From a virus, in IMG/VR virus record IMGVR_UViG_3300045125_000172, positions 8,244-72,243 of that record: a DNA stretch of 64,000 bases; one strand, written 5' to 3'. Under the pieces are notes generated by a model, which was not told where the DNA came from, made no database searches, and saw only the letters and a list, made by a program, of their open reading frames with translations. This document shows positions 171-59,904 of this stretch, one piece after another. A program made the position numbers and the translations under genes. How positions within the stretch are numbered: position 1 is the stretch's first letter; every line of letters starts with the position of its first letter.

Positions 171-2456
171 TCAAGGTTTTGGAATATAAGTTTTTTCCGC
201 AACCAAACCGTCTTTGTTTTTTGACTTTGATCCTTTAATTATAAGCACATTACCAATAAATAATTGATTCCTATATTGTTTGTAAACTTCTGGAAAATAT
301 ACGATAGAATCAATAACGGCTGTTCCGTCATTAATTGATACAAAAGCCATTTCCGCGCCCACATCTTTTCCTCTTTTAGTTTTTACAACGCGTATATTTT
401 CTACCTCTCCTGCGAGCATAATACTATTAGCCATATATCCATTCTTAAAATCTTTACAAGAGCAAGTAACCATACTGATATCATACATATCTATTCTAGA
501 GCAACTAATGGAATATCCAAGAAGCATATTTTCTGTATCAGCAATCCACTCGATAGAATCTTGCAATGAGTATGGAGGATTTAACAGACTATATGATAAT
601 TGTTCTATAACAATTTTACGTTTAGCTGTAATTTTACCATTTAATACCACTGCTAGATTTTTTAAGAGCGATAATTTATCATCATAAAATTTGTGTAAAT
701 TTTCACATTCTTTATTGGTTAATTGTGTTATTATATTGTATTCAAATAACATCTGGTTCCTTGTCATACCTAGATGATCCAGTGCTCCGGATTGTATTAG
801 AGCTTTACTAGCTGTAGAATTGATATTATTTAATACAAATAACAAATCCATCCAACTGTATTCTGTTATATTTTTGGTGTTATTATTTAATAAATTTTTT
901 AATTTATCATACGCAGACTTACCAAATCCCTTGATATCTGTTAATCCAAAGAATATTTTACTATTTTTAAGTTCAACAAATTCATTTAATAGTCTTATAT
1001 CTGGTTTGCAGACTTCTATGTTCATTTCTATTGCATTTTGTACAAGTTCTTTAATTTCTGCCTGAGGATCTATTTTATCTTTAGCAAACCTTAAATATGA
1101 CGCAAAAAATATTCTTGGAAAGTGTGCTTTGGCATATGCTGATAAATAACAATTCATAGCATAACTTACCGCATGACTTTTATTAAAAGAATATCTTTGA
1201 CTTTTTTCTATCCAGTTAAAAATTTCTTCAGCTTCTTTTGGTTTTAAAATACCCACTTTTTCACAACCGTTGACGAAAGTATTTTTAAGTTTAGCCATTT
1301 CTTCTGGTTTCTTTTTACCAATTGCTTTGCGTAACATATCTGCTTCTTGCAAATTGAATCCAGCAACAACACGAGCTATTTCCATAGCTTGTTCTTGATA
1401 AACCATTTCTCCGTATGTTGTTTGTAGAATCGGTTCTAAACTCTCATGAAAATAATCCACTGCTTCTTCACCATTTTTTTTATCTATGTAGTGATTACTT
1501 ACACTTTTACCATCTCTAATAGCCTCAAGACAATTATGTACAACTACTCCGCCGGCTATAAAATTATGATGAGGAGCCTTCATAGAAATGTCATAAACAT
1601 CTTTTATTCCTATGGAAATTTTCTCTTTTAAAGTAACCCATCTGCCATGAACAGTGTGTGGTAATCTGTGTTTAACTTTAGCATTATTTACTTTTTCTAT
1701 GGTTATTGATCCTTCACTAAATTGTCTATGATGATTAGGACACATATAGCACAAGTTATCTGGATCATTATTTGTAAACCTATTACCATCTATATGGTTA
1801 ACGTCAAGAGAACCAGATGTCCAATCACAGAATATACATTTTTCTATATATCTATTGTAACATCTTCTCCTAAAACACCTAGTTCCAAATCCTGGTTTTT
1901 TATAAATTGGACCTCTTCTTTGTCTTACTAAGATTCTATCTCCAATATTGATATCTCTTAATTCTTTCCATCCATACGGAGTCAAAAGTTTGTGGTCTTC
2001 TGTACATTCTAACTTATAGTCTTTTTCTCCACTTTTGGTTGTTTTTCTTTCTGTAGAATTAATCACTATTTTAAAACATTCTTTTTGTCCAGTGTAAAAT
2101 GCATTTAGCATAGGGTTTGTTACAAATATGCCATTTTTTTCATCGTAGGAAAGTAACTCTGGATATTGATTTGGATTATTGGCAATGTCTTTTATTTTAA
2201 CATTGATATAACTATCTCTACCATCTTTACGAACATATTTTCTCACAGATATTTTTGTGTCACCGGAGATACATCCTGGTCTCATGATACTAATTAAAGC
2301 AGCCAATTCTTCTATATTAGATGGCTTTAATTTTTTAGCCATTGATCGTCCAAGTCTTGATTCTAATTGGAAACATCCTTTTGTATTTCCACTAGAAATC
2401 AAACCCCAAGTTTTTGGACAATCAAGATCCATTGAGGATATGTCAGCATTAAACAT
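171..2456 (-). CDS. dnaE: DNA polymerase III alpha (DnaE) C-terminal half, containing an intein
   Basis: GCFQLES, SIMRPG, MVYQEQAM, ADMLRKAIGKKK, YSFNKSHAVSYA and the C-terminal OB fold (KTKRGKDVGAEMAFVSINDG) are DnaE motifs. Confidence 0.95.
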   Translation of the reverse strand: MFNADISSMDLDCPKTWGLISSGNTKGCFQLESRLGRSMAKKLKPSNIEELAALISIMRPGCISGDTKISVRKYVRKDGRDSYINVKIKDIANNPNQYPELLSYDEKNGIFVTNPMLNAFYTGQKECFKIVINSTERKTTKSGEKDYKLECTEDHKLLTPYGWKELRDINIGDRILVRQRRGPIYKKPGFGTRCFRRRCYNRYIEKCIFCDWTSGSLDVNHIDGNRFTNNDPDNLCYMCPNHHRQFSEGSITIEKVNNAKVKHRLPHTVHGRWVTLKEKISIGIKDVYDISMKAPHHNFIAGGVVVHNCLEAIRDGKSVSNHYIDKKNGEEAVDYFHESLEPILQTTYGEMVYQEQAMEIARVVAGFNLQEADMLRKAIGKKKPEEMAKLKNTFVNGCEKVGILKPKEAEEIFNWIEKSQRYSFNKSHAVSYAMNCYLSAYAKAHFPRIFFASYLRFAKDKIDPQAEIKELVQNAIEMNIEVCKPDIRLLNEFVELKNSKIFFGLTDIKGFGKSAYDKLKNLLNNNTKNITEYSWMDLLFVLNNINSTASKALIQSGALDHLGMTRNQMLFEYNIITQLTNKECENLHKFYDDKLSLLKNLAVVLNGKITAKRKIVIEQLSYSLLNPPYSLQDSIEWIADTENMLLGYSISCSRIDMYDISMVTCSCKDFKNGYMANSIMLAGEVENIRVVKTKRGKDVGAEMAFVSINDGTAVIDSIVYFPEVYKQYRNQLFIGNVLIIKGSKSKNKDGLVAEKTYIPKP
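1533..2273 (-). mobile_element. Intein (247 aa) with HNH homing endonuclease, in DnaE-C
   Basis: Starts CISGDT (block A); has LECTEDHKLLT (block B TxxH), DVYDISMKAPHHNFIAGGVVVHN followed by Cys+1; internal CIFC..LDVNHIDGNRFTNNDPDNLCYMCPNHH is an HNH motif. Confidence 0.92.
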
Positions 2457-3319: not shown

Positions 3320-5199
3320 TTATTCTCCTTTTAATAAATCTTGAATTGTCATAATTTTATCCAGCATGGCGATACCGAGAATATCGAATTTAATAATACC
3401 TAGACTTTCTAAATCTTGCATTTCCATACCGGCGATTGTTTGATCGTTCTTACTATCATAAACCATTGGACAAGACTCTCCAAGAGGGGTAGGACTTATC
3501 GCTATCCCAGCAGCATGTTTTGATTGATTAGTTTTTGTTCCTTCTAATCTTATTGCTTGCTCAAATCTTTTTGCTAGTGGACCAACCAGATTATCATTAT
3601 CATCAATATAGCACCATTCTGATAGTTCTTTTGATTTATTTTCTAATGCCCATCTAATAATTGATGCTTCTCCATATTCTTCTTTCATGTCTTGCAATTC
3701 GTCTGCTATTTTAGCTTCGTCTGGAATATGTTTAGTAATATTATTCATTTCTTCAAACGTAATATTGCCATAAGCTCTTAAAACATCTTTTAATGCTCCT
3801 CGACCTTTCATTGTATTAAAAGTAATCATTTGTGAAACTTTATCATGACCATACTTATCTTTGATATAGTTGATAACATCTTCTCGTTTGTTAATAGGAA
3901 CGTCAACATCAATATCTGGCATTGATATATGATTAGCTGTATTTCTTCCAGAATTATAAAATCTGTCAAAAATCAATCCATATTTTATAGGATCTATCGC
4001 TGTTATGCCTACTAAATATGAAACCATACACCCAGCAGCAGAACCTCTTCCGGGACCGGGCAGCCAATTATTAGATCGAACATACTGTAGGATATCTTGA
4101 ATGATTAAGAAATAACTTGATAGACCAGCGTTCTGTAACACAGATAATTCGTATTTTATTCTTTCTACATATTGATTTGTCATGTGTTCATTATTATGGA
4201 CTTTTTCTGTTATTTTTTCTTTCCATCCGTTGCGACATAGTTCCCTTAAATATTCTGCTTCTGAGAAACCGTCTGGACATTTAAAATTCGGTAATGTTGG
4301 CTTGGAAGTAATATCATAGTTTTCACATAAAGAGTCTATATAATTTGTATTATCTATCTCTTCTTCTGTGTGTAGCTGATTAATTTCTTCATGATCTAAT
4401 ATATGATAATTATCAGAGATAAAAAATGTCTCCATACCAACTTCTTCATTATTTAGAATTTTTGAGTAACATCTGTTAGTGTTGTTTTTAAGATTATTAC
4501 ATAATAAAATCCTTTGATCAACAGCGTCCTCTTTTTCTGCATAATGAGCATCCGGTGTGCATATAACTTTAAGCCCTGTTTCTGATGAAATACTTCTAAC
4601 GCATTCCGTCATTTTAGATTGCATAGGGTTGTTAGTCCAATCCATCAATTGAGCTTCTAGAAAAAAATTATCTGAGCCACCAAAAATTTCTTTTAGATAG
4701 GAAGCTTTATTAATTAAAATGTCTTTCCAGTCCGGATTTATCTCGGTATAATTACTAATACTATTAGCTAGAACTGATCCTAAGTGTCCAGCAAATCCTA
4801 TTATGTTTCCATCCAACAGAGAGCCAAGTCGTACTAAGTCTATTCTTGGTTTATAATAATAAAATTCTGGTTTGTTGGTTTCCGATATTATCTTTATAAG
4901 AGTTTTCCATCCAGCATAGTTTTTAGCTAAAATAACCAAATGGCTTAGTTTTTTATTGTCATTATTTTTAATTGATGCATCATCATCACATACATACAAT
5001 TCACAGCCAAGTATGGGTTTGATTCCATTTTTTTCATGCACGAATGGAACTTAACAGCACCTGCTATGTTCCCGTGATCGGTTAACGCGCATGTTTTAAT
5101 ACCTGTTTTGATACATCTTTTTGCAATTTGTTCTGGCTTAGATAATCCGTCTAAAATTGAAAAGTGACTATGAACATGCAATGGAGTATAATGTTTCAT
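3320..5199 (-). CDS. dnaE: DNA polymerase III alpha (DnaE) N-terminal half (PHP + palm); one frameshift near 5040
   Basis: LHVHSHFSILDG and ALTDHGN (PHP); GPGRGSAAG, PDIDVD, HAAG, KFDILG (catalytic Asp motifs); ends TIQDLLKGE*. Confidence 0.93.
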
Positions 5200-6813: not shown

Positions 6814-7886
6814 GTATTTATTTTCGATATGATTTGTTCTTTTAATTTCTTCATTAGATAATTCTGCTATATCGTTTTTTGATATATGAATGTGTTGTAT
6901 ATTATATATTTTTTTACACTTATTGTCAATTTGTGTTCTTGCTTTCATGCCAGCATCATCAGAATCGGTAATAATTACCAGAGTCATGGCTCCACTAGTA
7001 TCTAGCAACATCTTTTGTTTGTCATTCAGATTAGATCCAAATATAGCTACGGCATTGTGTATGCCATTACTTTCTAGTTTCCAAACATTACCAGGACTTT
7101 CAACAATAATAGCGGTTCTACTTTCTTTAATATATTTTTTAGCAAACCAAAAGTTATACAAACAATTCTCAGCAGAAAATCCCTTATTGTGTTTCCATTT
7201 TGGTTTTAATTCATCAGATACTGATCTACCACTGCACCCTATCATGTGCTGATAATCTGTGTCGTAAATAGGAACCACCGCTCTTCCAGACATTTCCTTG
7301 TTTGCTGCTTCGCAGTCTCCAACATCATACTTATCTAATATTACTGGATCAAATCCTCTAGATATAAAATACGGACTAGGTATCTTTAATAATTTTCTTA
7401 CTTGATTTCTATTAGGATGATTCGTGGTAGCTGTTTGTTTTGTGTTAAGTATATTTAGACTATTAATAAAGTTATTTTTTCTTTTTCTTTATTTGATATC
7501 TTTAAATCTCTTAGATTAATCTTACCAAAATCTGTTAAAAACTTAAGTGTTTCTGAAAAACTTACTGTCTCATCTCCGTCACATGACCAATCATATTTTT
7601 TATGAGATAAAATTCCTCTAACAAAACCTATTATTGATCCTTTAAAATGTTTTTCGCATTGATGAGTTCTGCATTTCCAGTTTCCTCTATATGACTCTCC
7701 AACATAATATAGATTAATTGCGGACTCATTATCTCCACCATGTATTGGACAGGGCATACTTATGAACTTGCTGTTTTGTTTATACTCAAGGTCAAAATAG
7801 TCCAATAAATCGGTTATATTATCGCATAAACGATCACACAAAATTTTTAACTTTTGCTGATCAATCGAATGGAATGTTTTCTTCAT
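6814..7886 (-). CDS. DNA primase (Zn finger + Toprim), frameshifted
   Basis: CPIHGGDNESA...CRTH Zn finger in ORF 7455..7922; RAVVPIYD..IGCSGR, IIVESPGNVW, DSDDAG Toprim motifs in ORF 6235..7293. Confidence 0.8.
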
Positions 7887-9311
7887 CTTTAACTTCGAAC
7901 CCATCTTCATCATCTTTTCCATTTACAATCTCCAATCTGGTTTTTCCTTCAGTAATTTTTGCACACCAACCCTTCATGTGACAATTGATATAATCATTAT
8001 CCTCAAGTCCTGCCCCGTGTCTACTAATCAATGGTATAAGTTTTCTGTTTCCGTTTGTTGGTCCATCTTCTGCAATTTCTTCATCACTTTTTCTTTTAAA
8101 TATAGAAAAATTACTACACAACCATATAATTCTATCTGATCCACTCGCTGTGTCTGTGCTTTCTTTTGTTATTCCGTCTCTATTTAATTGCACAAATGCC
8201 ACGATTGGTAATTGATATTTACAGGCAAAATTATGTAATGTGGTCATCATAAAACCAAGAACTTGGTATTCTTTCATATCTTGGCTTATACCAGCACTAT
8301 CCATAAGTTTTAGATAGTCATAAAAAATTACACAGGGTTTTGCTGTGCCGTCTGAATTCAATCCTACTTCTTTAATTATCCATCTTCGCATAATAGACAA
8401 TTGCTCATCAAAAGATTTACCAGCGATAGACTTGTGAAACAATGGTGTTTGTTTTAAATCGTTAACAGCATCTTCTATCTTCTTTTTAAGGATGGTGTTT
8501 GTGCAAACTTTCCGCTTTCAATTTTATTGATCTCTATCTCTGTCATCATTGCTAATATGCGATGAATATGATCTCCTTTAGTCATTTCTGTATCCATATT
8601 CAACACCGGTATTTTTAATTTATTTGCAATATAAAAACCCATATTATCAGATAACAGAGTTTTACCGGTCTTTGGTCTTGCTGCAATAACATTGATAGTA
8701 CTTTTTCTTAAACCACCACCAATAGCAAAATCGTATGCCGGAAATCCTGTAGAAATACCGACCTGATCTATTGGATTAGCTATTAAGTCTTCTATATATT
8801 CTTCTAGATTATCACTAATTTGTATAGGACTACTATCCTGATCCTCCATAGATGTGCTAAAGTTTAATATTGGTTCTTCAACCAAACTCATTATATGAGA
8901 AATGGGTTCGGATCCCGTAACATTAAGCACATTATTTTTTATATCGTCTAATTTTTTATGTAATTTTCTGGCTATTTCTAATTTTCTAATCTTCGCAGCA
9001 AACTGTAATAGATTATCAAAATTTGCAGGAAAATCCAAGATTGCTTTTAGGTGTTGCGTCTCCTCTTTTTTCTGCAAAACATAGTCTAAATCTAATTCTT
9101 TGGCTGCGGAGAAGATAGAGGCTATATCAATTGATTGACAATTATGGTCAACAAATATCTTTTTTAAACATTTGTATATAATAATATTACTATCTATTGT
9201 AAAACTATTTTCATTTAAAATATCTGCAACTTCCAGATATGCTTTTTCTCCATACTGACATAATATGGATAAGACTGCTCTTTCAGCAGATGGGTCGAAT
9301 AGGATATTCAT
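7861..9311 (-). CDS. dnaB: Replicative DnaB-like helicase; frameshift near 8470
   Basis: AERAVLS N-terminus, GISTGF, AARPKTGKT (Walker A), MDTEM, FYDYLK, QLNRDG, SGSDRI. Confidence 0.92.
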
Positions 9312-52731: not shown

Positions 52732-53604
52732 TCAGCCAGGATACGAGTTGTCGTAATCGTCCTCGTCCTCATAATCATCTTCATCCTCATCATCAAACTG
52801 ATCCCAGTAATCATCACGAATATCATAATCTTCATCCTCGTCATCATAATCAGCATACTCATCTTCTGAGAATTCGGCTGAATACAATGGCTTGAGAAGT
52901 TCTCCTTGATATTCACCAACAACAAGATATTCGCATGTGCGAAGTTTCTCGCAGTTACAATCGGTTGGAACACTCACAACGTCCTTGGGATTAATCTTAA
53001 CAATAACAATCTTATCACCATTTTCCAGACTACCATAACTAGCAACATAATTCAACGCACCAGCATGAAGTCCGTTTGAACAACCACGACCACGATCATC
53101 GTCTACCTTAGATCGTGTCATCTTGCAAACATTACCAACACTGTTGTCGAATACTCCACGATACTTGTCCTTATAATCAGATCGGACTGCCTTATAAGCC
53201 AAGAAACAACCATCCTCAGTAATAGGCAGATGCTCATGCTCAAGGAAATCATATAGTTCCTTTTGGCTCTGCATACTAGGATTCTCCATAAGATTATGAA
53301 GAAAATTAACCAGAGGATAGAAGGGTAGACCCTTGCTCATAAACTCTAGAATACGCTTGCTGATACTACCATGAACAACCTCGCCCTCATACATAACCTG
53401 ACCATTCTTAATCTCCACAAGACCATCACTAAAAGTAGCAACAGCCTTCTGTACATCAACAATATTCAAGAGTTCATCGGCACTTGCTGTTGGCAAAGCC
53501 TCAAGAATCATCTTGTAATTAATATGATCCGGTAAAACTTGATACGTTCTGTTGTTAAGAACAAGCGTAAGATTACCATCAACCCACATAAACGGAACAC
53601 TCAT
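52732..53604 (-). CDS. T4 rIIB-like protein with acidic tail
   Basis: LYDFLEHEHLPITEDGCFLAYKAV, DDDRGRGCSNGLHAG, VKINPKDVVSVPTD..KLRTCEY. Confidence 0.8.
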   Translation of the reverse strand: MSVPFMWVDGNLTLVLNNRTYQVLPDHINYKMILEALPTASADELLNIVDVQKAVATFSDGLVEIKNGQVMYEGEVVHGSISKRILEFMSKGLPFYPLVNFLHNLMENPSMQSQKELYDFLEHEHLPITEDGCFLAYKAVRSDYKDKYRGVFDNSVGNVCKMTRSKVDDDRGRGCSNGLHAGALNYVASYGSLENGDKIVIVKINPKDVVSVPTDCNCEKLRTCEYLVVGEYQGELLKPLYSAEFSEDEYADYDDEDEDYDIRDDYWDQFDDEDEDDYEDEDDYDNSYPG

Positions 53605-53629
53605 TTTTTCTCCTTTGTTTCCTGTGAAA

Positions 53630-56280
53630 TCAACCAATAATTTGACCGAACTGAACCTTAAAATTATCCGTATCATTCAAAGTATTATACCAACTATTAC
53701 TTGAACGATAATAGTAGCCTTTGTTTTCATCCAGTTGCTTGAGAGGATCACTGTGAGTTAATTCTCTCAGATTTCCGCTTACTGGACGCACACACATAAT
53801 ATATTTGAACATCGGATTGTTGTCAAGAGCAACTTTAATAGTTTGCCTCAACACAGACATTCTTGGTGCGGAATAGTCCGCGTCTGATTCTGCTTTCTTA
53901 AAGATTTTCTTGTAGACCTTTGATGAATCATCAGAATACAATTCATCAATAATTCTGTTGATTGTGTTGTAGATCACATTAGAATCCTTGATCTTTGCAC
54001 TATCAAGTCCGTTGATACCAAACTCATTAAGAATTTTGGTCATGTGACCATAATACTCATCCTTCTTGAGTTTGCGAATATCAAAATCGCTACGATGAAT
54101 AGTGTCCGCAAAAAATTCAATTAGCATCAGACTATCAAGCGTTTTAACTATCTTATCATTGTTGATAAATTTACTATAATCCAATCCGAAAACATTAATT
54201 ATATGGAATAGAAACTGTCTATCGATATAACCATTTCCATAAGATGCGTTCATCTTATCGTCGCTATTGTATTCGGTCTTGCACTGTTCCACAAGATCAT
54301 TGAATTGATAAATATCCTTAAACTTTGTATCGTTCAGTTTCTTTAGGCGAGTCTTGGAACTAAGTGTTAAAATCCACAAGGTTGTACCCATCCTTAGTTA
54401 AACGATCCACAACACCACTCTTATTAGCGTAGATATTAGTGCCATCAAGAACTTTATGCTTTTCAAAAGTCTTTGAGACCATACAATTTATTAATTTGAG
54501 GATACTGATCCGTTAGCAGTACCGTACCTGAGAATAGGAACGTACACAATCTCATCCTCGTCCTCTAGTTCTTCTAGGCGATCAGTACTTAGACTACGCA
54601 TATACGCAGCATCATTGTAATCATAACTAAGAGGACTAGTATTCGTCTGATCTCCAAAGATCAAGAAAATTTCTTGGTCACTAACACTACCCTTGCTACC
54701 CTTTACTTCCTCTGGTTTTAGGAGTAGTCTTAATAAGATCACGATAGTCTGATACATTAAGAATATTCTGGTCGCCAACATCTGTAACAAGAGTGGAGAA
54801 ATTATTCTTCACATCTGTATGATCGTTAGCATTAACAAGAAGATAAGCAAAACAATCATACTGATTGCAGTATCTCAGTAACAATCTTCTTTGCGGTTTC
54901 GGTAGCACCGATATCGCACCAGAAGAAAACCATTTGCCCATTCTTTTTTTATTACTATTCCAGTAAGAGTATCCCTTACCAGTAAGAGTATCATGATGAA
55001 TTCGGTCTGTCATATAAACCAAGCGACGAGAACGATAACCAGCGGTTCTATAATTGAACACATACAGGTTTTCATCCTTCTTGAGCTTATACTCAATATC
55101 TTGACCGCTAGAAATATTGTGAGTTTTACCAGAAGAATCAGTCCAACTAGCACCAACAACCTCTCAACCACCAGCAAGATCATTCATTTGATAATAAGTG
55201 GTGATTGCTTCTATCTTGGTTTAGCAGTAGCAATCTTGTCGCTAAAATTCTTCCTTCAGTTCCAAGAAAATATCCTGGGTCTTTTCACGCAGAGTCTTGA
55301 CCACATTCTTGGTATACTGTAGACCCTCTCGAAACATCCATTTCAAGTTCGCCAATCTTAAACTCAAGTTCAAGATAAAGACCCTGATTAATAATCTCAC
55401 CAACAAAAGCCTTCCACGAAGCAATATCGGCCTTATTGAAGGCTCTATTCCACTTGGCAATATGGTCCTGGAGTTTCGGCTTTTCCTCACCAATAAGATG
55501 AGACACTTCAACAGGGTACGCGACATTACCCATCAATAGCAACAACACCGCTTTGAATACGATGATAATGACTTGGGAACTTATTATTATCATTATTGAG
55601 TCGGCAAACACGCCACCCGTCACCATCAATCACAACATTACGTTGACTATATTCCTTGGTGAAATCGTAATTAACACCACCAGAGATAATAGGCTTCATC
55701 TTAAAATAATGAAAAACCCTAATAGCCTTCTGACTAAACTCTGTGAAATCATATTGCTTAACAGCAAAACTAATCTCTAGACCATTAGGTTCACTGGTTT
55801 CTGTGCTGTGAATAAGATTCAGAGTAGGCACACCAGCATCATCAATAGCCGCAATATAGGTATACTGCGTACCGTTAAAATAAGACGTTGGTGGTAAAAC
55901 TCTTGGTATAAGCAAACGGACTCTTACTACCTAGACCAAGACAACCAACAAAATCGTTGCTATCATTCTTGTTACTAGCACCATACGTTGTATACAGATG
56001 CTCCATATCCTTTTGGCTAAGACCCGTACCATAATCACGCACGGTAAAATTAGGATCAGCAGCAGTAGGCAACTTTACCAAGAAAGGGATTCTTATTGCC
56101 AGCACTAATGTGACTATCATAAGCATTAGTGGCAAGTTCACGAATAACCGCCATTACCTTGTCGGAATAAAGAGAGTCCGACAAAATCTTAAACATTTTA
56201 CTGGTCTGTGCAATCGTAAACTGATTCGACGCACTAATACCAGCACTATGAACCTCAACCGTTCGATCCGCAAGTTTCAT
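53630..56280 (-). CDS. T4 rIIA-like protein (GHKL ATPase N-terminus), broken into many frames
   Basis: FKILSDSLYSDKVMAVIRELATNAYDS, VRDYGTGLS, GCLGLGSKSPFAY, NGLEISF; directly upstream of rIIB. Confidence 0.8.
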
Positions 56281-56314
56281 GTTTGTTCTCCAAGGTTTCC
56301 TGTGTGATGCTCCA

Positions 56315-56342
56315 AGTATACATCGTCAATCCGCGTTGTCAA
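56315..56342 (-). promoter_or_regulatory. Sigma70-type promoter for rIIA
   Basis: TTGACA-N16-TATACT, 35 nt above the rIIA start. Confidence 0.8.
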
Positions 56343-56344
56343 CT

Positions 56345-56623
56345 CTACGCTTTCTGGATTGCAAGATTTCTTTTTAACTTCATTGTACAATAAGTTCCAG
56401 CAAACGCTCCTAAAAATAATGGAATAATATATAACATATTTTGGCTAAAACTCACAACGCCAAATGCTGATAACGAGGTTATCATTCCTGCCATAAAAGA
56501 AGACATTAGATTTTGTCGAGATTCTATGCAAAGAATATAATAAGCATAGAACATATCCAAAATAAAGTAGGTGCTAAAAATTAGAATAGCAATATTAAGT
56601 TTAAATATTTGTATCTCGTCCAT
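56345..56623 (-). CDS. Small multi-TM membrane protein
   Basis: Three hydrophobic segments. Confidence 0.55.
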   Translation of the reverse strand: MDEIQIFKLNIAILIFSTYFILDMFYAYYILCIESRQNLMSSFMAGMITSLSAFGVVSFSQNMLYIIPLFLGAFAGTYCTMKLKRNLAIQKA

Positions 56624-57181
56624 GTTTATTTATTCTATTTATGCTAATATAGGAACAATAAATTGGTAATAATCCAACATACCATACTGGTAGTCCTATT
56701 GTTAGAAACCATAATCCAGAAACTAATGATAGCGTACTAAAAATATACAATAAATTTTGGCAATCCTAATCTTGCTAGCAAATAAGTAAATGGTCCTATT
56801 AATAGTACAATCAAAAATATAATAGATACCACGAGTGCTAAACTAGCCATGATTATGTCTCATCGTCATTTTCCCAAAAATCATCTTCTTTTGACGCCCA
56901 GTTTTCTTCGTCTTCGATAGTATAGTTATCTTCTAAATCCTCGTCATCTTCTGCTAGCATTATAGTAAAATTATTTAATATTTCTAGCATCATATCAACT
57001 TTGAACGAAATATCTTTTACTTGTTTTTTTACATCGGATATTTCTTTTAGAATCTTTTCATGATCTTTTCCAGATTAGTAACGTCCCTAAAGAATAATTT
57101 ATCTGATTGATTGATTTTTTTAATGATATCATCAAAATCTTTTGACATTACATTCTCCTTATTTAAGGAAATATTATCTCA

Positions 57182-58049: not shown

Positions 58050-58410
58050 AATGATTGTATCCCTTCCAATCTTGTTTTAAAAATTCTTCTCTGTTAGAAT
58101 ATAAAGGTACAACTTTCTCATCATCGTTATGAGGATTATCCATAAGTCTAAGAGCATATAAATCGTGCCTATCATTAATTAGACCATATGCAACAGGACG
58201 ATCAAAAATTGATAGCAATTTATTGTATTCTTGTTTTAGTTTGGCTAATTCTTGTTCGCAACCAAACCATCGCTTAGAATCACTACTATCTTCTTTTAAT
58301 TTATGCAGTTGATCTTTAGCATTGTTAACAACAAAACGATCAGCACCATTTGCCCAAGCAAATTCAATAAGAAATTCAATAGGATCAGCGTGTTCGTTCA
58401 TTTCAGACAA
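58030..58410 (-). CDS. Hypothetical protein
   Basis: 126-aa intact ORF. Confidence 0.5.
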   Translation of the reverse strand: MSEMNEHADPIEFLIEFAWANGADRFVVNNAKDQLHKLKEDSSDSKRWFGCEQELAKLKQEYNKLLSIFDRPVAYGLINDRHDLYALRLMDNPHNDDEKVVPLYSNREEFLKQDWKGYNHYGKFTK

Positions 58411-58697
58411 AGCCTATACGAGTTTTTTCTGTGGTAACAATATTCTCTATATCAGAGGCGTTAAAGGTTTCAGTGCAATATGACCGACCATTCCACCATG
58501 CACATTTATAGGTAATTGAATGATTAGGGCCGATACTAACAGCAATAATTGTGCCGTAAACATCATCAGTCAGTTTAACTTTGGTTCCAATATTATAAAA
58601 ATTTAGAGAGTTTTTTGCTCATTATTTTTCCTTGTTCTTCAAAGGTTTTAGTGTATATGTATTGTATCGTTTACCGCATAAGGAGTCAAGAGATATC

Positions 58698-59158
58698 ATG
58701 AATGTAAAAAATCATTATACAAAAGAAATATTATCCAAAATTTGTGCTGAATCTTATAGTTATAGACAATGCTTAGATAAGATAGGAATAGTCCCTGCTG
58801 GTGGAAATTACGCTTGTCTTAAAAAACACATCGAGTTGCATAATATCGACATTTCTCATTTTACTTTACAGGGATGGAATAAAGGTCAAAAACTAGGCCC
58901 CAAAAGATCTATAAATGATTATCTGTCTAATAAGCAAACCATACAAAGTTGGAAATTCAAAAAGAAGATTACTGAATGATAAAATATTTGAGCATAAGTG
59001 CTATAACTGTTTACAGAAAACATGGCTCAATAAACTTAATACCTTTAGAGTTGCATCATATAGACGGAGATAATTAAAACAATAATCTTTCTAATCTTGA
59101 CTTTATTGTGTCCAAACTGTCATGCACTAACTGATAATTATCGTGGAAAAATAAATAG
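58698..59158 (+). mobile_element. Free-standing HNH endonuclease, antisense, abutting the tRNA 3' end (frameshifted)
   Basis: MNVKNHYTKEIL..SYRQCL..GGNY; HKCYNC, LELHHIDGD..NNNLSNLTLLCPNCHALT..RGK. Confidence 0.85.
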
Positions 59159-59434
59159 GAGCAGTGGGATTCGAACCCACACTGTAAACGGATTTTCGTA
59201 CCACTATAGTTTTCACTACCATTTCTGTTTGTGGTCTGGACTTTACCTTAACCATAACTTTCGTTTTAGGTTCCTGCCGTCAAGTCTCTACACCTTCATA
59301 TTTCTATGCTTGGCTCGGTATTAGCAGTTAAGCCTTCACCGAATTTGACAGGTTCTACTTTAAAGATTTCTCCTTTAAGCACTCCAATTTAACAAAAAGT
59401 CCGTTGATGTCTGCCAGTTGGTCACCATGGGCGC
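59156..59434 (-). tRNA. tRNA-Leu(UAA) interrupted by a group I intron; acceptor stem imperfect
   Basis: Exon 1 59434-59397 GCGCCCATGGTGACCAACTGGCAGACATCAACGGACTT; exon 2 59196-59156 AAAATCCGTTTACAGTGTGGGTTCGAATCCCACTGCTCCTA; spliced loop CTTAAAA. Confidence 0.8.
59197..59396 (-). mobile_element. Group I intron (200 nt, IC3-like) in the tRNA anticodon loop
   Basis: Upstream exon ends in U, intron ends in G; CAAATTCGGTGAA (P-like), GAGCCAAG (Q-like), GTGTAGAGACTTGACGG (R), AAGGTAAAGTCC (S). Confidence 0.88.
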
Positions 59435-59542
59435 ATAAGTAATCGACTACAACAATCAGTAGATTTGAGGTTGATTAATCTGTGTGTGCCTCAATCATTT
59501 ATAACTGTTGTAGCCGACTACCATTGTTTTAAACGATCGTTC

Positions 59543-59826
59543 TCAGCCGTTTGTATGGGCCTTGAGGCGACGAACAACTTCAGCCATAGCCTCGACGTTA
59601 TCAACCGTCTTAGCAGGCTTCGCACGTTCCATAGCGGGCAGTTCACTCACCTTCTTAGCCAGATCGGCCTTTACGCGAGCGTAACGAGCCGCTGTACTTG
59701 CAACCTTCTGACCAGTCTTAGCTAGCAATCTCAGCATAAGTCTTGCTGCTAAAAACAGCCTCAAGAAACTGCCTCATCGCTGCAACGAACACGACTCTGC
59801 TTCTCAACATTACTAACTTCAGCCAT
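59543..59826 (-). CDS. Small basic early protein (frameshifted)
   Basis: MAEVSNVEKQSRVRCSD..KTYAEIASKTGQKVAST; follows a sigma70 promoter. Confidence 0.5.
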
Positions 59827-59904
59827 AATCAACCTCCAAATCTTAAAACACCAACCGTCTTAGCAATTCAGTCACGCGACTGATCCTCTTGCCTCGACTC
59901 ATCT

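Follow-up and report, generated by a model that had tools for sequence, protein, structure and literature searches.

An intron-bearing tRNA-Leu(UAA) gene with an antisense HNH neighbour in T4-like phages, and a candidate recombinant allele with a mispaired acceptor stem

Anatomy of the tRNA-Leu(UAA) locus

The DNA analysed here (“the window”, 64,000 nucleotides) comes from a 72-kb IMG/VR virus record and has T4-like gene content, with rIIB, ribonucleotide reductase, a gp41-type helicase and a gp43 polymerase that is split. On the minus strand the window carries a tRNA-Leu(UAA) gene that is interrupted by an ORF-less group I intron, and a free-standing HNH endonuclease gene lies antisense at the tRNA 3' end (Table 1). 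We compared this arrangement with about 100 related phage loci, referred to below by their L and G numbers. Using the neighbouring 126-aa gene as query retrieved 27 syntenic loci, a helicase search retrieved a complete relative of 186.8 kb (G001), a 31-nt word from the intron core retrieved 61 intron-bearing loci, and an HNH protein search retrieved 34 loci. Judged from these sequences, the combination of a tRNA-Leu(UAA) gene, an ORF-less group I intron and an antisense HNH gene is a module common in environmental T4-like phages.

Table 1. Features of the tRNA-Leu(UAA) locus, in window coordinates
Feature	Position	Strand	Remarks
tRNA-Leu(UAA) 5' exon, 38 nt	59397..59434	minus	Class II type, L153/L135-like plus 3 extra bases
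Acceptor 5' strand GCGCCCA	59434..59428	minus	Read from sequence
ORF-less group I intron, 200 nt	59197..59396	minus	Rfam RF00028; between U34 and A35 of the UAA anticodon
tRNA 3' exon, 41 nt	59156..59196	minus	Same as the L159/L165 3' exon except two extra T's after TCCGT
Acceptor 3' strand TGCTCCT	59163..59157	minus	Read from sequence
Discriminator A73	59156	minus	Read from sequence
Free-standing HNH endonuclease gene	58698..59158	plus	Antisense to tRNA; ATG at 58698; abuts tRNA 3' end
HNH cassette, about 499 nt (497 nt in L159)	58650..59148	plus	Missing in L165 and G001 (empty sites)
Putative sigma-70-like promoter TTGACT-17-TACAAT	58661..58689	minus	Inside cassette; consensus match only
Patch divergent from L159/L165/G001	59376..59500	minus	Part of upstream flank, whole 5' exon, P1; outer edge approximate

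The splice sites (59397|59396 and 59197|59196) were set by alignment to intron-less alleles (G001, L011 and others), which read ..CTT|AAAA.. through the insertion site. The tRNA gene is interrupted at this precise site, with a U before the 5' splice site (the 5' exon ends in T) and a G at the intron 3' end (59197), as is characteristic of group I introns. The Rfam model RF00028 matches over its full length (59406-59215, minus strand) with 53.2 bits against a gathering score of 50 (E 1.1e-10); the copy in L159 scores 54.7 bits, and the intron core is identical in 61 other viral contigs. Related group I introns occupy the same site in two jumbo phages, L001 (LR756501, 735-kb) and L002 (Agrobacterium phage Atu_ph07), where the host genes are class II tRNA-Leu(UAA) genes with paired acceptors. 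In Atu_ph07, the intron-bearing tRNA copy lies under or between genes annotated as ‘hypothetical protein’. Both of these homologous introns are missed at the Rfam gathering threshold, so the integrity of introns was not judged by Rfam score.

Joining the two exons gives the anticodon loop CUUAAAA, and thus a tRNA-Leu(UAA); CCA is not encoded at the end of the 3' exon. A preliminary description of this DNA, made from its sequence, had claimed that the two acceptor strands disagree at three positions, and direct reading confirms this. Three of the seven pairs are mismatched (C2xC71, C4xU69 and C5xC68), the other four being G1.U72, G3-C70, C6-G67 and A7-U66. The anticodon stem is still paired (ACGGA/TCCGT). 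As written, the gene has neither a seven-pair acceptor stem nor detection by a tRNA finder after intron removal: ARAGORN called no tRNA in the window or in the sequence spliced in silico, even at a relaxed threshold. The call returns when either acceptor strand is made complementary in silico. Because repair of either strand alone restores detection, the acceptor mismatch is the sole structural defect of this tRNA. With three acceptor pairs lost, the spliced RNA would probably yield no usable tRNA. Splicing itself is probably unaffected, because P1, the anticodon stem and the intron core are all intact; the Anabaena intron reportedly depends on a paired anticodon stem to splice (Zaug 1993, as listed in PMC3984707).

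As assembled, the HNH frame contains +1 insertions at about 58958, 59035 and 59099, a -1 deletion at about 59149 and an in-frame TAA at 59075-59077. The motif residues (..LELHHIDGDN.. and ..LCPNCH..) are retained, spread over three frames and the TAA. Intact homologues of 150-151 aa are encoded in L023 (PF01844, 25.4 bits against a cut-off of 21.4; phrog_10822, E 9e-46) and L159 (an ORF of 151 aa). The window gene is about 96-97% identical to that of L159, and its frame-corrected product is nearly the same as the intact L159 protein. Because of this near-identity, and because private indels occur throughout the contig (see below), the lesions are best read as sequencing errors, and the HNH gene is probably not a pseudogene. 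Once one base is restored, its would-be stop TAG (59156-59158) overlaps tRNA positions 71-73. Such an overlap had been proposed in the preliminary description, and the intact relatives L023 and L159 show exactly that arrangement.

Comparison of the occupied site with the empty site, ...CCTATTTATTTC|AAAACCTTTG..., defines the HNH cassette; where L159 has the 497-nt cassette, L165 has a single base. The putative promoter within the cassette faces outward to the downstream small gene, and L023 has TTGACT-17-TATAAT in the same place (3700-3735). Such a promoter may compensate for interrupted read-through from the tRNA. The motif RGTGTAT, earlier put forward as the HNH gene's own, shows no enrichment (15 matches, with 15.8 expected by chance) and was rejected as an HNH promoter motif; no T4-type late promoter was identified. 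Elsewhere in the window (171-2456, minus strand), the C-terminal fragment of a DNA polymerase has an HNH domain at its N-terminus, which matches PHROG 10822, as does the tRNA-associated HNH. The polymerase gene is split around further ORFs.

Allele affinities of the two tRNA halves

The locus is hypervariable. Its tRNA-Leu(UAA) is either of class II, with a long variable arm, or has a short variable loop; the intron is present or absent; and HNH is intact, a remnant, or absent with a clean empty site. L011 typifies the alleles without intron and HNH, with a ..GGACTTAAAATCC.. site. Many UAA alleles of 73-77 nt with A73 and G1.U72 (L010-L030, G001, L159) have a short variable loop (5 nt, class I shape), and other phages have a normal class II tRNA-Leu at the same locus. 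Among the 71 intron-bearing loci scored for acceptor pairing, the window is the sole one with a mispaired stem; the other 70 are fully paired.

From P2 onward, the window intron is about 99% identical to that of L159, and the 3' exons of the two are identical apart from the two additional T's in the window. In both L159 and L165, the 5' strand is GGGAGCA and pairs fully with TGCTCCT, and the spliced L159 gene is called as tRNA-Leu by ARAGORN. A partner allele of exactly this GGGAGCA type had been predicted for the window 3' end, and these two loci provide it. L165 has the same tRNA, intron and 3' end as L159 and no HNH. G001, the closest complete relative, has GGGAGCG/CGCTCCT, an anticodon stem different from that of L011, and neither intron nor HNH. 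Since the TGCTCCT end is found unchanged and paired whether HNH is present (L159) or not (L165), and G001 has an end of the same type, this 3' end is native to the window lineage and independent of HNH.

The divergence from these relatives lies in a patch of about 95-125 nt, of which about 35-70 nt belong to the upstream flank, and which includes an intron P1 guide of the TTGGAGTGC type. Outside the patch, the window and L159 share about 97-99% identity on the intron side and about 93-95% on the upstream side. The patch matches the class II family of L153, L135 and L160 in its acceptor type, GCCCC(T/C)(A/G), its D stem, the ACGGA strand and the P1 guide TTGGAGTGC. The nearest 5'-exon allele is L153, with 31 matching positions; compared with an L153-like class II half, the window exon has four substitutions and three inserted bases. 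The three extra bases (a private CC and a private T) are seen in no natural allele, and the D arm is canonical once they are removed. Blending of two alleles, fitted column by column, would take 8 switches and leave 3 unexplained columns, compared with 1-5 switches in natural alleles. Blending thus does not seem to be required for the origin of the 5' exon, and an L153-like half is the simpler description. A junction in the variable loop, with TCCGT foreign, was likewise rejected, as L159 shows that the whole 3' exon is native.

A second contig with the window 5' exon was not found in the viral or metagenome collections searched, and the combination has been seen once. Exact-pattern scans for this exon, or for the matching TGGGCGC 3' end, returned unrelated chance matches in viral contigs, and the single metagenome match to the donor scan was a high-GC coding region. 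Six other loci join GGGAGTG to CGCTCCT, giving a harmless U6.G67 wobble, and the matched form GGGAGTG/CACTCCT also exists. Because these six loci combine the two strand types, shuffling of 5' and 3' exons occurs naturally at this locus.

These affinities bear on the model offered in the preliminary description, in which HNH homed into the 3' flank of a GCGCCCA...TGGGCGC tRNA and co-converted the acceptor strand, leaving a foreign 3' end. The model has a precedent in SegB, which cuts tRNA gene 3' ends and drags along flanking tRNA genes (PMC2330249), and HNH is indeed polymorphic at a fixed site that abuts the tRNA end. However, the intron body and all of the 3' exon, its anticodon-stem strand included, belong to the HNH lineage (L159) and not to the lineage of the 5' exon, and the 3' end in question is carried without HNH by L165 and, in the same type, by G001. 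Moreover, the divergent tract and HNH are on opposite sides of the intron. The tract flanks the tRNA 5' end, and no donor-type tract was found beside the HNH cassette, on whose far side backbone-type sequence reaches as far as the boundary. We regard the model as very improbable and, given L159 and L165, as largely refuted. Its premise that the stem is built from two allele types is supported by the allele comparison. Its claim that HNH swapped the tRNA 3' end is not supported, as L159 and L165 carry that end natively and the foreign tract comprises the 5' exon, P1 and upstream flank. The proposed comparison of alleles with and without HNH and intron did reveal presence and absence of HNH at a fixed point, but the 3' end is the same in either state. 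Similarly, the suggestion that HNH may have crippled this tRNA holds insofar as the tRNA as written fails the in-silico test, but HNH as the cause is unsupported. The unpaired stem thus appears to reflect a foreign 5' half of class II type joined within the conserved intron, and not an effect of HNH.

We also considered point-mutational decay, in which an unneeded tRNA became a pseudogene and accumulated substitutions, like the apparent state of HNH. The rejection by ARAGORN and the broken genes around the locus would fit such decay. Nevertheless, the changes are limited to one strand and one patch, and this patch is a coherent class II 5' half (a TG-GTG...CA(C/T) D arm, ACGGA and a P1 guide matching that of other alleles), while the intron and 3' exon are essentially unchanged. 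We regard decay, too, as very improbable.

Proposed recombination through the intron and the quality of the contig

We give roughly even chances to a real recombinant, in which two intron-bearing alleles were joined within the intron and the 5' patch came from a class II tRNA-Leu. The intron body, the 3' exon and HNH would then belong to one lineage (L159-like, with GGGAGCA as the native partner strand), and the patch would derive from another allele class (class II tRNA-Leu, L153/L135-like) through homologous recombination or gene conversion between two intron-bearing alleles in a mixed infection. One junction would lie inside the near-invariant intron, which could serve as portable homology between otherwise dissimilar tRNA genes, and the other in the conserved upstream flank. 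Such an exchange would retain the splicing determinants (P1, P10 and the anticodon stem) and cost the acceptor stem three pairs. HNH would not be the importer of the 3' end, and at most would have supplied the DNA break from which repair started. We infer that the join is present in phage DNA; HNH or intron homing may have triggered it. If the join is real, it represents a natural case of the cost of intron mobility, a dead tRNA produced by recombination between unrelated tRNA alleles through their common intron sequence, with the splicing signals intact.

Somewhat less probable, and still a serious contender, is an assembly or consensus artefact. Here, the exons of two co-occurring strains would have been joined across the shared intron, the mismatched tRNA would exist in no phage, and the HNH frameshifts would be errors. 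Between the two variable exons lie about 190 nt that strains have in common, across which an assembler could join two strains, and the junction falls within this part of the intron, where the alleles are identical. Of the 71 loci, no other shows the combination, and the additional bases (two T's behind TCCGT, and CC and T in the 5' exon) resemble the insertion errors of the contig. In addition, the HNH product is near-identical to that of L159 and yet carries five disabling lesions, as expected of errors and not of decay.

The contig as a whole has many private single-base indels, also in essential genes. These window-private 1-nt indels are mostly insertions, many of them outside homopolymers, and occur at 7458-9311, 52732-57180, 58406-58622, 59543-59830 and elsewhere. 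They break the genes for gp41 helicase, primase/dNMP kinase, rIIA and rIIB as well as small genes, all of which are intact in relatives. The gp41 helicase is in three pieces, compared with an intact 500-aa ORF in G001; small genes on both sides of the tRNA are also frameshifted. There are 12 frameshifting indels in rIIA relative to L005, and the 2.5 kb downstream of the tRNA contain 9 private frameshifting indels versus 0 in G001 and L005. True pseudogenisation of the whole region was considered and is unlikely: substitutions in rIIA (0.147/0.101/0.333 by codon position) indicate strongly purifying selection, the frame-corrected rIIA and HNH proteins are conserved, and essential replication genes are broken too. 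The contig is probably a noisy consensus of the long-read type, and single-base claims on it are not to be trusted.

Other properties of the contig speak against an artefact at the tRNA. Random insertions outside homopolymers point to long reads that spanned the locus, and such reads rarely give a chimeric patch of 100 nt. Base substitutions in the contig look natural, the private ones being distributed 22/12/38 over the three codon positions, with the natural third-position bias. Substitutions in the contig are thus mostly real, and the dense differences in the 5' exon are not random error. Furthermore, roughly 70 other assemblies of the locus faced the same phasing problem and show no such chimera.

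The HNH family, the intron and known homing systems

The window, L159, L023 and about 27 of the 61 intron-bearing loci carry the HNH cassette of about 497-499 nt, and L165 and G001 have empty sites. The gene is thus present or absent at one defined site, in the manner of a free-standing homing endonuclease gene. Several HNH-less alleles (L011, L015, L020, L021, L025, L029 and others) keep the last 20-75 nt of the HNH frame (..GATAATTATC..). These remnants have at least three different deletion endpoints and all retain ..GATAATTATC.., which indicates repeated loss of the HNH gene after fixation.

Of the 34 loci that the HNH protein search retrieved, 28 have the gene at a tRNA-Leu(UAA) gene (counted from the per-locus listing). 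HNH lies antisense behind an intron-bearing tRNA at 16 loci, and antisense beside an intron-less tRNA-Leu in L191 and L204. The HNH homologue of L205, L208-L214 and L219 runs in the same direction as an intron-less tRNA-Leu(UAA) and stops directly at its 5' end. This tRNA heads a tRNA cluster, and the arrangement is a third one of the HNH family with the same tRNA. Finally, in L203, L216 and L222 an intron of the same family, at site 34/35 of tRNA-Leu(UAA), itself contains an HNH homologue between P1 and P2. The in-intron homologues have 46-57% identity (E 1e-39 to 2e-50) and are located at 901 to about 1356 in each locus. L203, L216 and L222 are canonical mobile-intron forms of the element that stands free in the window.

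The HNH family is therefore evolutionarily tied to the intron and its insertion site, a relationship expected under collaborative homing, in which the free-standing enzyme would mobilise the ORF-less intron. Genomes with HNH do not always carry the intron, as seen in L191, L204, L205, L208-L214 and L219. Because L191 and L204 combine HNH with an intron-less tRNA, the intron is not strictly required as protection from HNH. The anticodon stems at the intron-less HNH loci differ from the ..GGACTT|AAAATCC.. of all intron hosts, and immunity of the target by sequence is possible there. Collaborative homing, raised in the preliminary description, is thus favoured by the HNH homologues within the same intron family at the same tRNA-Leu site, but not in the form of a strict need for the intron. 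Overall, the comparison supports a free-standing HNH that may act in trans as the endonuclease of the intron. By analogy, a SegB-like mode, with recognition of the T arm or the tRNA 3' end, would be equally open.

SegB of phage T4 is a free-standing GIY-YIG homing endonuclease encoded in a tRNA gene cluster. The enzyme recognises GGTTCRANTCC, the T-psi-C motif, and shows preferential inheritance in which nearby tRNA markers are co-converted (PMC2330249). The window resembles this system in having a free-standing endonuclease gene among phage tRNA genes. In contrast, the enzyme here is a putative endonuclease of the HNH type, SegB has no intron beside it, and segB is co-transcribed with the tRNAs, whereas the window HNH is antisense with its stop overlapping the tRNA end. 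HNH endonucleases of the F-Tfl type are mentioned in tRNA clusters of T5-like phages (PMC2330249). The best GenBank match to the window HNH is a 153-aa HNH gene directly after tRNA-Ala in the T5-like Salmonella phage OSY-STA (49% identity over the C-terminal 79 aa, E 7e-26, with the N-terminal halves unaligned). Unlike the window HNH, it points the same way as the tRNAs and lacks an adjacent intron.

Collaborative or trans homing has been described for F-CphI and the ORF-less psbA intron of cyanophage S-PM2 (PMC6083498), and for mobE and the defunct I-TevIII intron in T4 (PMC2790892). As in the window, an ORF-less or ORF-dead group I intron adjoins a free-standing endonuclease gene, which in the described cases can mobilise both elements. 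Those systems differ in their protein-coding host genes and in their enzymes (F-CphI has an Endo VII-type motif), the host here being a tRNA gene. They differ further in that the HNH family described here also occurs inside the homologous intron (L203, L216 and L222), and in that two HNH-positive loci are intron-less.

Phage introns tend toward protein-coding genes (reviewed in PMC3984707), and in the literature searched we found no description of group I introns in phage tRNA genes. The cyanobacterial (Anabaena) intron shares the insertion point U34/A35 and the flanking exon bases ..GGACTT | AAAATCC.. with the window-type intron, and both are ORF-less. The likeness consists of the site, the flanks and the ORF-less state; the window-type intron differs in that it sits in genomes of lytic-type phages, often with an HNH gene, and in that its host tRNAs often have a short variable loop.

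The comparative set forms a natural series on how homing endonucleases and introns associate and part, a subject usually studied only in T4 and in the cyanophage psbA gene. One HNH family is found in four states: in the intron, free-standing behind the tRNA, before intron-less tRNAs, and as decayed remnants. The lasting result is a widespread tRNA-Leu, intron and HNH module, with in-intron and out-of-intron forms of one endonuclease family. A broader reading, which we put forward tentatively and consider rather unlikely in its entirety, would make the locus a composite selfish module with phage tRNA-Leu(UAA) genes as its homing target, consisting of the ORF-less intron and an HNH gene that moved out of the intron to the fixed antisense position overlapping the tRNA end. 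The intron would then act as a bridge that shuffles tRNA halves, and the window would be a real by-product, a tRNA disabled by the mobility of its own intron and still competent for splicing.

A second module of this kind occurs in G001 (L126, about 951-1800; G001:C1, about 153450-154300). It consists of an Ile-like tRNA with a UAU anticodon and an intron at 34/35. The acceptor is paired (GGCGCGT/ACGCGCT), and the intron is a related group I intron (77% identical). A different HNH protein of 188 aa, with a Cys-rich N-terminus, is encoded antisense and abuts this tRNA, and the same ..AAAAATAAATAG.. junction is found at the tRNA end.
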